This document shows, one piece after another, positions 37,724 to 41,795 of a stretch of DNA of 64,000 nt (position 1 is its first letter; each line of letters begins with the position of its first letter). Both the position numbers and the translations under genes were made by a program. The DNA comes from an uncultured Erythrobacter sp. (GTDB taxonomy: Bacteria; Pseudomonadota; Alphaproteobacteria; Sphingomonadales; Sphingomonadaceae), in assembly GCA_937969505.1 (NCBI GenBank), contig CALBWA010000010.1:11184-75183 (forward strand). Reading direction: 5' to 3'. The notes below the pieces were generated by a model that did no database searches, was not told the DNA's origin, and saw only the letters and a list, made by a program, of their open reading frames with translations.

Positions 37724-37799
37724 AGCGCAAGCGCTTGGCCTGCTGGTAATCCAGACAGGCCGTTTTTACACTTGAATTTCATTGTTTCGGAGAGTTTCC

Positions 37800-38582
37800 A
37801 TGGCCAGCGCGCCACAAGCCAATCTGCCCCTGTTTTATAAAGACCTTCTGCCGCTAAACAGCCGCGACCACAAAGGCTGGAAGTCGAAGAACTTCACCGA
37901 CGCGACTTTCATGGCAGAAACCCATGCCATCCCCGTGACGGTGGACGAATTCGTCGATGCCCAGCGCGATTACCCGATCGTGTTCACATCGGGTGCCGAT
38001 CCGCTGCCAATCGCTTTGATGGGCCTCAACGAAGGCGTGAATGTTTTCGTCGATGACAAGAAGAAGCTTCAGGACGGTCTCTATCTGCCTGCATACGCCC
38101 GCCGCTATCCGTTCATGCTGGCTCGCCTGCAGAAGGATGCTGACGAGATGTCACTGTGCTTTGACCCGTCGGCTGGCACCGTTGGCGACCAGAAGGATGG
38201 CAGCGAGCTGTTCAACGATGAAAGTGGTCCCACTGAATACACCCAGCAGGTCCTTGATTTCTGCCAGAAGTTCGAAGAATCAGGCCAACGCACGAAGGCC
38301 TTTATTGACGAGATCAAGAAGCTTGACCTGCTGATGGATGGCGAAATCGCCATTACCCAGAACGACAATCCGGAAAAACCCTTTGTTTATCGTGGTTTCC
38401 AGATGATCGACGAGAAAAAGCTGCGTGAACTGGATGGCGACACCATCCAGCGCCTCAATTCCAACGGAATTCTGGCGATCATTCACTCGCACCTGTTCTC
38501 GCTCGGCCTGATGCGCACCATCTTCATGATGCAGCAGCAGCAGGGTAAAGTTCCCGCTTCGGCCGACGCAAACCCGGCCTGA
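37800..38582 (+). CDS. SapC family protein
   Basis: YKDLLPLN, YPIVF, LMGLNEG.N.F, YLPAYARRYPF and HLFSL motifs. Confidence 0.85.
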   Translation: MASAPQANLPLFYKDLLPLNSRDHKGWKSKNFTDATFMAETHAIPVTVDEFVDAQRDYPIVFTSGADPLPIALMGLNEGVNVFVDDKKKLQDGLYLPAYARRYPFMLARLQKDADEMSLCFDPSAGTVGDQKDGSELFNDESGPTEYTQQVLDFCQKFEESGQRTKAFIDEIKKLDLLMDGEIAITQNDNPEKPFVYRGFQMIDEKKLRELDGDTIQRLNSNGILAIIHSHLFSLGLMRTIFMMQQQQGKVPASADANPA

Positions 38583-38613
38583 ACACACAATATCTGATAG
38601 GGGCGCGTTCGGA

Positions 38614-38642
38614 CTTGAACATGGTTCCGTCCGCTCCTATTT
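38614..38642 (+). promoter_or_regulatory. RpoH (sigma32)-type promoter
   Basis: CTTGAA-N16-CCTATTT, one mismatch from the recalled rhizobial RpoH1 consensus CTTGAA-N15/16-CCTATAT. Confidence 0.55.
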
Positions 38643-38649
38643 GAACCCT

Positions 38650-38757
38650 ATCCGGCGGGTCCCTCCCCCTCAAACGCCCGCACGGACGCACACCCAATGT
38701 GGTGTGCACCCTCCCTGAACCTTGGCCACCTCGTGCATTTGCGCGAGGTGGTTTTTT
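38650..38757 (+). ncRNA. Candidate trans-acting sRNA with C-rich anti-SD motifs
   Basis: Two hairpins, CCCTCCCCCT and CCCTCCCT tracts, and terminator CCACCTCG..CGAGGTGG-TTTTTT; no SD-led ORF inside. Confidence 0.55.
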
Positions 38758-38783
38758 CTTGCCGGAAGATGGGTCCGGGCCGA

Positions 38784-39734
38784 TTACTCGGCCGCTTGGG
38801 GGAAATCGCCTTTCGACGCCAATTGCGTGGTCGCCCCGGCCAATTCGCGCACCAGCCCCGCGAGCAGATTGACCATTCCGGGCAGATTGGCACTGGGCTG
38901 TTCAAACGCAGGATCGAGATAAGTCGATCGGCAAACTTCCACCTGCATGGCATGAATACCTCGCATGGGCGCGCCATGATGATCGAGGACAAATCCGCCC
39001 GAATATGGGCGGTTATGAGCCACAACCGTCCCCCGAGAATCGAGATAATGGATCGCCCGCCCCATGATCGCGCTGCTGCAGGACGCGCCGAAACGGTCCC
39101 CCAAAACAAATTGGGCAGGTGTCTCCTGCCCGAAACGTCGCTTGAGCGGGGGCATGGAATGCAAATCTACCAGCAGGGCAGCGCCCCATTCATCTCGAAT
39201 ACGGGCCAGCTCACGTCCTAGACAAGAATGATAGGGCCGATGAATGCCTTCGATCCTTGCGTCCAGCTCTGCCCGGTCGATCGGAGCCTTCCAGATTTCG
39301 CCAGATCCGGCGAGCCGGCGTGGGATAAGGCCCAGACCGCTGCGCGAACGACGATTGGCTTGTGAATGGCGTGTGCTGATCGGCCGGTCCCCGGCGACCA
39401 TGCCCCAGTCGACATCGTCCCGGTCGCGGTTGAGATCGAGCATGGCACGAGGGGCCTTGGCCACCAACAGGGCTGCTCCGGTAAGGCGCGCGGTCTCGCT
39501 TGCCAGCGTGTCGACAAAGCGGTCTTCCAGCCGCAGCGCGCTGTATCCGGCGTCACGCATGCCCGCGATGACAGCCTCTGGGTAGGTCCGTCCGCCATGG
39601 GGCGCTGCAATGAGCACAGGAATGGTTTGGTTCACAGGTGCGGTAAATGTGAAGGCAGATTTATCACGTGCGCCGCTGATGAAACCACCGTCATAACGGC
39701 GCGAATCGGACTGGAACGGTGTGCGATCAACCAT
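38784..39734 (-). CDS. N-formylglutamate amidohydrolase family protein
   Basis: PVLIAAPHGGR.YP, LDLNR, HRPYH, LHSMP and N.PYSGG motifs; start uncertain. Confidence 0.88.
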   Translation of the reverse strand: MVDRTPFQSDSRRYDGGFISGARDKSAFTFTAPVNQTIPVLIAAPHGGRTYPEAVIAGMRDAGYSALRLEDRFVDTLASETARLTGAALLVAKAPRAMLDLNRDRDDVDWGMVAGDRPISTRHSQANRRSRSGLGLIPRRLAGSGEIWKAPIDRAELDARIEGIHRPYHSCLGRELARIRDEWGAALLVDLHSMPPLKRRFGQETPAQFVLGDRFGASCSSAIMGRAIHYLDSRGTVVAHNRPYSGGFVLDHHGAPMRGIHAMQVEVCRSTYLDPAFEQPSANLPGMVNLLAGLVRELAGATTQLASKGDFPQAAE

Positions 39735-39844
39735 ACCCGGAGGCTGCCCGCTCTCATCACTTGTGTCAAAGCATCGCCAAGAAACACGACACTTTTCAGC
39801 TGGGTGACAAAGTTTTCTTAAATTCTTCACGCTATCCGGACTGC

Positions 39845-40237
39845 ATGACAGCTGCACCCAATTTGCGAATCCTCCTCGCCGAAGATGAAGATGCCCTGCG
39901 GGCCTATCTCGAACGAGCCTTGATCAAGGCTGGTTATGATGTTGTGGCTGTGGCCAATGGTACCGATGCTGCGCCTTTGCTGGAAAGCCAATCCTTCGAC
40001 CTTCTTCTTTCGGACATTGTCATGCCTGAAATGGACGGCATCGAACTGGCCCAGCACTGCGCCGAGGTGAGCCCTGGCACGAAAGTCATGTTCATTACCG
40101 GTTTTGCGGCAGTTTCACTGCGCGCCAGCCGCGAACAACCCCAGGCCAAGGTCTTGTCCAAACCATTTCATTTGCGCGATCTCGTGCTCGAAGTGGAGCG
40201 CACTTTCGAAGGGCATGCCGAAGCCTCGCTTTCCTGA
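39845..40237 (+). CDS. cpdR: Single-domain response regulator CpdR
   Basis: RILLAEDE, LLLSDIVMPEMDGIELA, MFITGFAAV and LSKPFHLRDLV.EVE closely resemble Caulobacter CpdR as recalled. Confidence 0.88.
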   Translation: MTAAPNLRILLAEDEDALRAYLERALIKAGYDVVAVANGTDAAPLLESQSFDLLLSDIVMPEMDGIELAQHCAEVSPGTKVMFITGFAAVSLRASREQPQAKVLSKPFHLRDLVLEVERTFEGHAEASLS

Positions 40238-40316: not shown

Positions 40317-40391
40317 GGGCGTATAGCTCAGTGGTAGAGCACTGTGTTGACATCGCAGGGGTCGGGAGTTCAACTCTCTCTACGCCCACCA
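40317..40391 (+). tRNA. tRNA-Val (GAC)
   Basis: Cloverleaf: acceptor GGGCGTA/TACGCCC, anticodon arm CTGTG-TTGACAT-CGCAG, T-loop TTCAACT and encoded CCA. Confidence 0.97.
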
Positions 40392-40399
40392 TCGGCACC

Positions 40400-40430
40400 A
40401 AAGGCCCGCCCTCACCCGGTGGGCCTTTTT
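40400..40430 (+). terminator. Terminator after tRNA-Val
   Basis: AAAGGCCC pairs with GGGCCTTTTT. Confidence 0.75.
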
Positions 40431-40574
40431 GCTTTTGTCAGCTTGATCGAACCGTTTTGCGCCAGTTGCGCGCGGATTGTTCGCCGCCGACTTGCACGAG
40501 ACAGCCTAAGTGCTAAAGCGCGCGCAACACTTTCTCCTCCCGTTTCAGACAGACAACAATCAAGCAGGGCAGTT

Positions 40575-41795
40575 ATGCAAAAAATTCAGGTCAAGAATCC
40601 GGTCGTCGAGCTCGATGGCGATGAAATGACGAGAATCATCTGGCAATGGATCCGCGAGCGGCTGATCCTGCCTTATCTCGACGTCGATCTTAAGTATTAT
40701 GACCTCTCGATCGAAAAGCGTGATGAAACTGACGATCAAATCACAATCGATGCCGCCAATGCGATCAAGGAACACGGTGTAGGCGTAAAGTGCGCCACCA
40801 TCACTCCCGATGAAGCGCGCGTTGAGGAATTTGACCTCAAGAAGATGTGGCGCTCACCCAATGGCACCATTCGTAACATCCTGGGCGGTGTAGTCTTCCG
40901 CGAGCCTATTGTGATCGACAACGTGCCGCGTCTGGTTCCCGGCTGGACCGATCCTATCGTAATCGGCCGCCATGCTTTCGGTGATCAATACCGCGCAACT
41001 GACACACTGATCCCGGGCGCCGGTAAGCTACGCCTCGTGTTCGAAGGCGCAGATGGAAAAAACATCGATCTGGAAGTGTTCGAGTTTGAAAGCTCGGGCG
41101 TTGCCATGGCCATGTACAACCTTGACGATTCGATACGCGACTTTGCACGCGCCTCCATGAACTACGGCCTCGACCGCAAATGGCCTGTGTATCTGTCGAC
41201 CAAGAACACCATCATGAAAAAGTACGATGGCCGGTTCAAGGATCTGTTCGAAGAAGTCTTCGAAGCCGAGTTCAAAGACAAGTTCGACGAAGCCGGTATT
41301 CACTACGAACACCGCCTGATCGACGACATGGTCGCCGCGGCCATGAAGTGGAACGGCAAATTCGTATGGGCGTGTAAGAATTATGACGGCGACGTTCAGT
41401 CCGACACTGTGGCGCAAGGCTTCGGCTCGCTCGGTCTGATGACTTCGGTTTTGATGACACCATCCGGTGACCGGGTCGAAGCAGAAGCGGCTCACGGCAC
41501 TGTCACCCGCCATTATCGCCAGCATCAGCAGGGCAAAGCGACCTCGACCAACCCGATTGCGTCGATCTTCGCATGGACGCGCGGCCTGATGTATCGCGGC
41601 AAGTTCGACGAAACGCCAGATGTGGTTCGCTTTGCTGAAACGCTCGAGCGGGTTTGCGTCGAAACGGTCGAAAAAGGCCAGATGACCAAGGATCTGGCGC
41701 TTTTGATCGGTCCAGAGCAGAACTGGCTGACCACCGAACAATTCTTCGAGGCGATTGTTACCAATCTCGAAGCGGAAATGCAGAACTGGTCATAA
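40575..41795 (+). CDS. icd: NADP-dependent isocitrate dehydrogenase
   Basis: [34 protein letters not shown] and [10 protein letters not shown] motifs. Confidence 0.97.

Follow-up and report, generated by a model that had tools for sequence, protein, structure and literature searches.

The stretch analysed here, referred to as the window, comprises 64,000 nucleotides (nt) of a contig from an uncultured Erythrobacter sp. (CALBWA010000010.1), and the subject of this report is a small-RNA (sRNA) gene on its + strand at 38614-38759. The element lies within the 201-bp gap between two convergent genes. On the same strand, sapC (37782-38582, +; Pfam PF07277 SapC, E 1.9e-70) ends 30 nt before the element and gives its context, outside the RNA gene itself. 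On the opposite strand the gene for an N-formylglutamate amidohydrolase (FGase; 38784-39857, -; Pfam PF05013, E 4.8e-62), a syntenic marker of alpha-r8 genes, is arranged tail-to-tail with the element, its stop codon 25 nt beyond the U-tract of the sRNA. We assign the element, with a probability of about 0.8, as the Erythrobacteraceae orthologue of the alpha-r8 sRNAs, a family that includes MmgR of Sinorhizobium meliloti, SuhB of Sphingopyxis granuli and SisA-D of Caulobacter crescentus. The window RNA is a divergent member of this known and characterised family, not a new class of regulator.

The element begins with a -35 box, CTTGAA (38614-38619, +), followed after a 16-nt spacer by a -10 box, CCTATTT (38636-38642, +), both read directly in the sequence. 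Transcription is predicted to start 7-9 nt past the -10 box, at 38649-38651 (+). Folding places a hairpin, SL1, at 38651-38686 (+), with arms UCCGGCGGGU and GCCCGC-A-CGGA enclosing a 15-nt loop, CCCUCCCCCUCAAAC (38661-38675, +), that contains a conserved CCCUCA motif. A second hairpin, SL2 (38688-38707, +; GCACACC/GGUGUGC), is the counterpart of the pre-core hairpin of alpha-r8 RNAs. It is followed by a single-stranded linker, ACCCUCCCUGAACCUU (38708-38723, +), which is taken as the alpha-r8 core, the putative anti-Shine-Dalgarno (anti-SD) seed, and which carries CCCUCCCUGAACCUU between SL2 and a Rho-independent terminator. The terminator (38724-38759, +), located by a terminator scan, is a 13-bp hairpin and then UUUUUUCU; the hairpin occupies 38724-38753, its 3' arm entering a T6 run at 38752-38757. 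A sequence-only reading of this DNA had pointed out the two boxes, both hairpins, the single-stranded stretch and the terminator, and each lies where that reading placed it. Its remark that the U-tract serves the plus strand only is borne out by the scan, which called the terminator on the + strand alone, and the C-rich, anti-SD-like motifs that it described are found in the SL1 loop and in the linker.

In both the minimum free energy (MFE) and the centroid folds CCCUCCCU (38709-38716) is unpaired, and in the 110-nt fold the only part of the linker to be engaged is GAA (38717-38719), which pairs with UUC after the terminator. The 110-nt RNA has an MFE of -52.5 kcal/mol, compared with -32.9 +/- 3.3 for dinucleotide shuffles (z = -6.0). 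Since the conserved promoter lies upstream of SL1 and SL1 covaries as RNA, a transcript of ~108-112 nt is predicted, with the core at about nt 59-68; this agrees with the length of about 110 nt proposed from the sequence. Three features indicate + as the RNA strand: the U-tract, the promoter and the abundance of G-U pairs.

Conservation and covariation of the RNA

Homologues of the element were collected by way of the neighbouring FGase gene. A scan for the FGase protein, taking one genome per species, gave 33 loci, all from Sphingomonadales and mostly from Erythrobacteraceae, including Erythrobacter, Qipengyuania, Aurantiacibacter, Altererythrobacter and Citromicrobium (FGase 48-62% identical), and metagenome contigs scanned with the FGase alignment gave 80 further loci. 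Just beyond the FGase stop codon, on the other strand, the element is found at 30 of 33 genome loci and at 58 of 80 metagenome loci, so that the arrangement seen in the window, which is also the usual single-copy location of alpha-r8 genes, recurs at 88/113 FGase loci. The upstream gene is sapC in most of these relatives, not in all. A covariance model, R2, was built from the 58 metagenome copies alone, with the window left out. Searched against the 64-kb window, it gave a single strong match at 38645-38757 (+), with a score of 73.5 bits and an E-value, rough for this model, of ~5e-15. No second copy or paralogue was found in the 64-kb window, the next matches scoring 13.9-15.1 bits (E 0.1-1).

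The hairpins are supported by covariation. RNAalifold applied to a plain MAFFT alignment, not fitted to any model, recovered SL2 and the terminator, in which 13 of 19 pairs have changed in a compensatory manner. For SL1 a model-guided alignment was needed because small bulges occur in differing registers, and the figures that follow come from this model-fitted alignment, which leans towards the structure. In it 92.9% of cells can pair, compared with 33-43% once the partners have been shifted by 1-3 columns; both members have changed in 25 of 31 pairs. Both-side changes affect 8/8 pairs of the outer and 3/4 pairs of the inner helix of SL1, and 7/7 pairs of SL2 (97.7% of cells paired). The terminator is paired in 99.5% of cells, with compensatory changes in 7/12 pairs, and 26 of 31 terminators have a G-U pair at the base of the stem; such G-U pairs are compatible with the + strand only. 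Individual folds, which require no alignment, gave SL1, SL2, linker and terminator in 31/31 sequences. Of 79 distinct copies, 77 display the C-rich SL1 motif in a hairpin loop closed by 6 bp or more, with 62 different arm sequences. Invariant unpaired sequence in the 31-sequence alignment consists only of the CCCUCA of the SL1 loop and the CCCUG.ACC of the linker, the pattern that would be expected of seed regions. The covariation across relatives that had been suggested as a check is thus present as compensatory changes in all three hairpins, and together with the homologues and a promoter kept in 81 copies it upholds the earlier claim of an RNA gene with a promoter of its own, and shows this + strand gene to be conserved and structured.

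The RNA gene is not universal at this locus. In 21 intact metagenome FGase loci and at L012, L014 and L017 the gap holds only a single plain terminator hairpin, and the gene is for this reason taken to be absent at those 24 loci; it is lost or moved in one sub-lineage. Loci with the order sapC, terminator, FGase and no alpha-r8 gene are L012, L014, L017, L046, L072, L075, L077, L079, L086, L087 and L089, and further L092-L094, L097-L102 and L106-L109. A variant form was seen at L064 (1779-1926, -), where the copy is 148 nt long and SL2 is replaced by a much longer branched hairpin, through an insertion of ~45 nt that leaves SL1, core and terminator in place.

Family assignment and alternative origins

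Alpha-r8 RNAs are marked by a Rho-independent terminator, a single-stranded 10-mer, UUUCCUCCCU, following a hairpin, and a gene that is mostly present as one FGase-adjacent copy (PMC12559287). The window element has these hallmarks, the 10-mer in a variant form: a hairpin, a single-stranded CCUCCCUGAAC core and a terminator make up the 3' two-thirds of the RNA, and the gene is linked to FGase. The terminator, a 13-bp hairpin with T6, covaries in the 31 sequences. The 10-mer of the window, CACCCUCCCU, is identical to the canonical one at 7 of 10 positions, retains CCUCCCU and is single-stranded after SL2, while at least 13 of the 81 homologous copies have the exact canonical UUUCCUCCC and most read YYUCCUCCCU.

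A search of Rfam with Infernal had been recommended in the sequence-only reading, and its outcome was divided. At gathering thresholds the window and 20 Erythrobacteraceae relatives returned only tRNAs. In permissive searches the window matched RF00519 (suhB/mmgR) with 17.1 bits (E 0.37) over 38685-38766, from 3 nt before SL2 through the U-tract, and RF00519 was the sRNA family that recurred in the relatives, at 26.3-37.6 bits (E 3.9e-4 to 0.3 in a 63-kb search). The element has remained unannotated because all of these scores fall under the Rfam suhB cut-off of 41 bits. Homology to alpha-r8 is supported by the chain leading from the window through its relatives to RF00519, together with synteny, and not by the Rfam threshold.

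Several observations weigh against this assignment. The window and all relatives score below the gathering cut-off of RF00519; the window 10-mer departs from the canonical core and is unique among the 81 copies; and the predicted ~110 nt exceeds the roughly 60-80 nt of the family (61 and 77 nt in known members). The window sequence was matched in DNA metagenome runs only. RNA runs contain 2 of 17 sampled window words, and the eight examined showed contigs of other organisms. These have only 38709-38757, the 49 nt of core and terminator, in common with the window and continue beyond it, so that they are neutral as to a transcription start or a discrete transcript. Target prediction, another check put forward in the sequence-only reading, was confined to the window: in an RNAduplex comparison of both seeds with every candidate start region, real starts were not enriched, a result that we judge uninformative.

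The identical 49-nt core and terminator, CCCTCCCTGAACCTTGGCCACCTCGTGCATTTGCGCGAGGTGGTTTT, was seen in contigs of many unrelated runs (X23-X34; coded organisms A-D; estuary, biofilm and wastewater), where another hairpin, GAAGCTTCGGCTTCG, stands before it. The rare CCCUCCCU variant of the core is thus common to the window and a widespread organism.

The sequence-only reading had likened the RNA to the CcsR (cuckoo) and alpha-r14 (NfeR1) sRNAs. Membership of either family would account for the three hairpins and for the C-rich CCUCC-type motifs in loop and linker, and one relative, L024, does give a weak match to alpha-r14 (RF02344, 30.4 bits against a cut-off of 58.8, E 0.08). However, neither family is among the permissive Rfam matches (to E 10) for 38500-38850, the match to RF02344, with its gathering score of 58.8 bits, being absent from the window scan, and the match that recurs in relatives is suhB/mmgR. 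Synteny with FGase and a CCUCCCUGAAC core are characteristic of alpha-r8 RNAs (PMC12559287), and the unit is present as a single copy in 64 kb, not tandemly repeated. A CcsR or alpha-r14 identity is largely refuted by the missing window match and by the alpha-r8 core, terminator and synteny found in its place, and we hold it to be very improbable.

Two further explanations would do without an independently transcribed RNA gene. The RNA might be the 3' untranslated region of sapC, either cut from the sapC mRNA by processing or merely serving to terminate it, as the sequence-only reading had allowed. Its strand and its position 30 nt past the sapC stop codon suit such an origin, and because the window hairpin lying between sapC and the RNA is weak (-10.5 kcal/mol) some read-through from sapC is possible. 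The RNA can nonetheless be explained without such read-through. At least five relatives (L009, L010, L030, L032 and L033) have a gene other than sapC upstream, and in these promoter and RNA are still found beside FGase; the TTG of the -35 box is present in 81/81 copies, and its distance from the -10 box is fixed; the RNA is preceded, at 30 of 81 loci, by a strong hairpin resembling a terminator for the upstream gene; and alpha-r8 RNAs are known as independently transcribed trans-acting sRNAs (PMC12559287, PMC6563040). A sapC origin is therefore disfavoured, and we consider it improbable. It could also be supposed that there is no RNA gene here at all, and that composite terminators or insulator hairpins between convergent genes have had their structure conserved for termination alone. 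The location between convergent genes is what this would predict, the 21 metagenome loci and L012, L014 and L017 do have a lone terminator hairpin in the gap, and the minus strand also folds well (z = -4.1). Termination, however, has no need of the invariant single-stranded CCCUCA in the loop and CCCUG.ACC in the linker, nor does it account for a conserved promoter; the G-U pairs and the U-tract suit the + strand only, and the RNA is homologous to sRNAs that have been detected experimentally. This explanation strikes us as scarcely credible. A candidate small open reading frame (ORF) starting from an AUG in the loop of relatives was also rejected: its frame to a conserved UGA is not kept (for example in L024), and the window has no AUG at that position.

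With respect to the neighbouring genes, the terminator hairpin at 38724-38759 is shared between the sRNA and the 3' side of FGase (gene end 38784-38800), and it has no U-tract on the minus strand. As the FGase stop codon lies 25 nt from the U-tract and the minus strand lacks a U-tract of its own, FGase transcripts may run antisense into the sRNA, and this could be one reason for the conserved linkage. On the far side of FGase, a tRNA-Val (GAC) lies at 40317-40391 (+), between the FGase gene and that for NADP-isocitrate dehydrogenase (icd), and a tRNA occupies the matching position in 20 of 20 related genomes scanned. The longest icd ORF (40344-41795) overlaps this tRNA. Because of this overlap and of an icd family match that begins at residue 78, the real icd start is placed ~230 nt further downstream.

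Promoter sequence and the sigma-factor question

Among the 81 distinct homologous copies the bases of the -35 box occur with counts of C68 T81 T81 G81 A76 A77 a50 and those of the -10 box with C65 C62 Y81 A81 T62 n T75, and the spacer is only ever 15 or 16 nt. TTG is accordingly found in 81/81 and the full CTTGAA in 62/81. Choosing the best-matching spacer slightly inflates these counts; the invariance of TTG and of A is independent of that choice. The covariance-model match, whose start lies a few nt ahead of the base of SL1, begins within 0-2 nt of the end of the -10 box in most homologues. In the window the motif CTTGAA-N15-17-CCYATNT occurs once in 64 kb, against 0.03 occurrences expected.

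An RpoH1-specific consensus, CTTGAA-N15-16-CCTATAT, has been reported for S. meliloti, and Sphingomonadales carry rpoH1 only (PMC4843759). The window promoter agrees with this consensus at 12 of 13 positions, and the putative family promoter, with the consensus CTTGAA-N15/16-CCYATnT, equals it. The T at -7, the final T of the -10 box, is absent from most alphaproteobacterial sigma-70 promoters (PMC8407463). Here it is retained in 75 of 81 copies. Many homologous copies read CCCCATTT or CCCCATCT at -10, which we take to be the classical sigma-32 -10 box. Judged from these motifs, the chances are close to even that transcription depends on the single Sphingomonadales RpoH (sigma-32), and so would rise under heat or proteotoxic stress.

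There are also reasons for caution about RpoH control. The consensus sequences of alphaproteobacterial sigma-70 and sigma-32 overlap, and the window contains no groESL, dnaK, clpB, lon or other heat-shock gene (Pfam, 44/49 long window ORFs) with which the sigma-32 motif could be calibrated. The S. meliloti member, mmgR, is under RpoD/RpoN with NtrC and AniA (PMC7143759, PMC8401924), Sphingopyxis SuhB is driven by a LysR activator (bioRxiv 10.64898/2025.12.09.693200), and expression of sisA is near-constitutive (PMC12559287). Because these other alpha-r8 genes have different regulators, control by RpoH would be lineage-specific.

The same alpha-r8 gene might instead have an ordinary sigma-70 (RpoD) promoter, possibly modulated by a transcription factor, and be controlled by growth phase or nutrients without being a heat-shock RNA. 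The alphaproteobacterial sigma-70 consensus, approximately CTTGAC-N17-CTATAT, overlaps the motif observed in the family. The regulation of the characterised members just described points the same way, and many S. meliloti sRNAs carry both RpoD and RpoH promoter calls (table in PMC7143759). On the other hand, the -10 sequence CCYATnT has C in 36 of 81 copies where sigma-70 prefers T, with two more conserved C residues upstream, which is typical of sigma-32 but not of sigma-70; the final T kept in 75/81 copies is lacking from most alphaproteobacterial sigma-70 promoters (PMC8407463); and the 31-sequence alignment shows no conserved activator site ahead of the -35 box. We regard a sigma-70 promoter as a serious possibility, somewhat short of an even chance.

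The -35 box coincides with a dyad in many loci. In 30 of 81, including L011, L013, L024-L028, L034, L040, L058 and L064, a strong GC-rich hairpin with covarying arms (MFE no higher than -18 kcal/mol) has CTTGAA at its apex and a T-rich -10 region after it, and the intrinsic terminator of the upstream gene and the promoter of the sRNA appear to be superimposed. In the window (38600-38642) the same dyad is weak (CGGAC...GUCCG, -10.5 kcal/mol). The possibility that the dyad is a regulator site comparable with the AniA/NtrC dyad of mmgR was considered and rejected; because its arms covary without conservation of sequence, an RNA hairpin, namely the terminator of the upstream gene, fits it better.

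Proposed action and comparison with known systems

By analogy with SisA, SuhB and MmgR, the window RNA would act in trans, probably with Hfq bound at the U-tail of the terminator. The single-stranded CCUCCCU core would pair with the G-rich Shine-Dalgarno (SD) regions of target mRNAs and so block their translation, with the SL1 loop probably serving as a second seed. The likely regulons, again by analogy, would be carbon storage (polyhydroxybutyrate, PHB), transport (TonB-dependent receptors) and stress tolerance.

SL1 is a module added on the 5' side, and its C-rich loop is conserved in its own right. The closest relatives of the window, L034-L036 (FGase 68% identical), share its enlarged SL1 loop, CCCUCCCCCUCAA, and in these the linker core has decayed to UUCCCUGAAC; anti-SD seed function may be shifting from linker to loop in this sub-lineage. 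In the three loci (about 2354-2471, -) the enlarged loop is kept as CCCUCCCCCU(C/U)AA and the core reads ACUUCCCUGAAC or AUUUCCCUGAAC. We tentatively suggest, as a reading that is rather unlikely on present indications, that the alpha-r8 RNA has been remodelled in Erythrobacteraceae, by the addition of SL1 as a second seed (CCCUCA, or CCCUCCCCCUCAA in the sub-lineage of the window) and by rewiring to a sigma-32 promoter, which would couple heat or proteotoxic stress to the repression of SD-paired targets. If so, the two seeds may address different target sets in a regulator that elsewhere reports carbon and nitrogen status, and this lineage would clearly exemplify how an sRNA is rewired through an added module and an exchanged promoter. 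Apart from this suggestion, the Rfam suhB threshold misses the locus in 20 of 20 Erythrobacteraceae genomes scanned, so that a conserved regulator goes without annotation in genomes of marine and other origin; with the present model 88 copies are recovered. Alpha-r8 RNAs govern carbon storage, transport and stress tolerance in the three species where they have been studied.

The CcsR1-4 (cuckoo) RNAs of Rhodobacter, which are RpoHI/HII-dependent, and alpha-r14 (NfeR1) resemble the window RNA in displaying several C-rich CCUCC-type motifs in loops and linkers. The CcsR RNAs consist of repeated hairpins with CCUCCUCCC loops in tandem copies, whereas the window has a single copy and no tandem array. 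Neither is homologous to the window RNA, as there is no Rfam match and the synteny differs, and they are functional analogues only.

MmgR, a 77-nt Hfq-dependent RNA (PMC7143759), and its Rfam model RF00519 are much closer. The order of parts is the same, from a hairpin through a C-rich, single-stranded anti-SD core (..CCUCCCU..) to a Rho-independent terminator; the gene is adjacent to FGase, and the model aligned over its full length, from SL2 to the U-tract. The window RNA differs in the first three bases of its core, CAC and not UUU, in its additional 5' hairpin of ~37 nt, which brings a second C-rich loop, and in its SL2, which is a strong 7-bp GC-rich hairpin and not a 'weak' one. The promoters are also unlike, that of the window being sigma-32-like and that of mmgR being controlled by NtrC/AniA with a conserved dyad (PMC8401924).

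SisA represses its targets, which form a large regulon, through an anti-SD 10-mer seed that is single-stranded after a hairpin (PMC12559287). The sisA gene is the FGase-linked copy in Caulobacter, as is the gene in the window. The seed occupies nt 33-45 in SisA (PMC12559287), compared with about nt 59-68 in the window RNA, and Caulobacter has four paralogues, SisA-D (plus the CrfA sponge), against one copy in the 64-kb window.

SuhB of Sphingopyxis granuli TFA comes from the same order as the window, Sphingomonadales, and belongs to the same family. It is 61 nt long (PMC6563040), some 50 nt shorter than the RNA predicted here, and because of this difference it cannot contain SL1. It is activated by a LysR-type protein and is high at high growth rate, whereas no equivalent conserved upstream site is seen in the 31-sequence alignment of the window family. 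SuhB is an Hfq-dependent repressor that pairs with the SD regions of thnR, phbB and the mRNA of a TonB-dependent receptor, and it has a link to stress tolerance (PMC6563040; bioRxiv 10.64898/2025.12.09.693200). By analogy, SuhB is the best functional model for the putative sRNA of the window.

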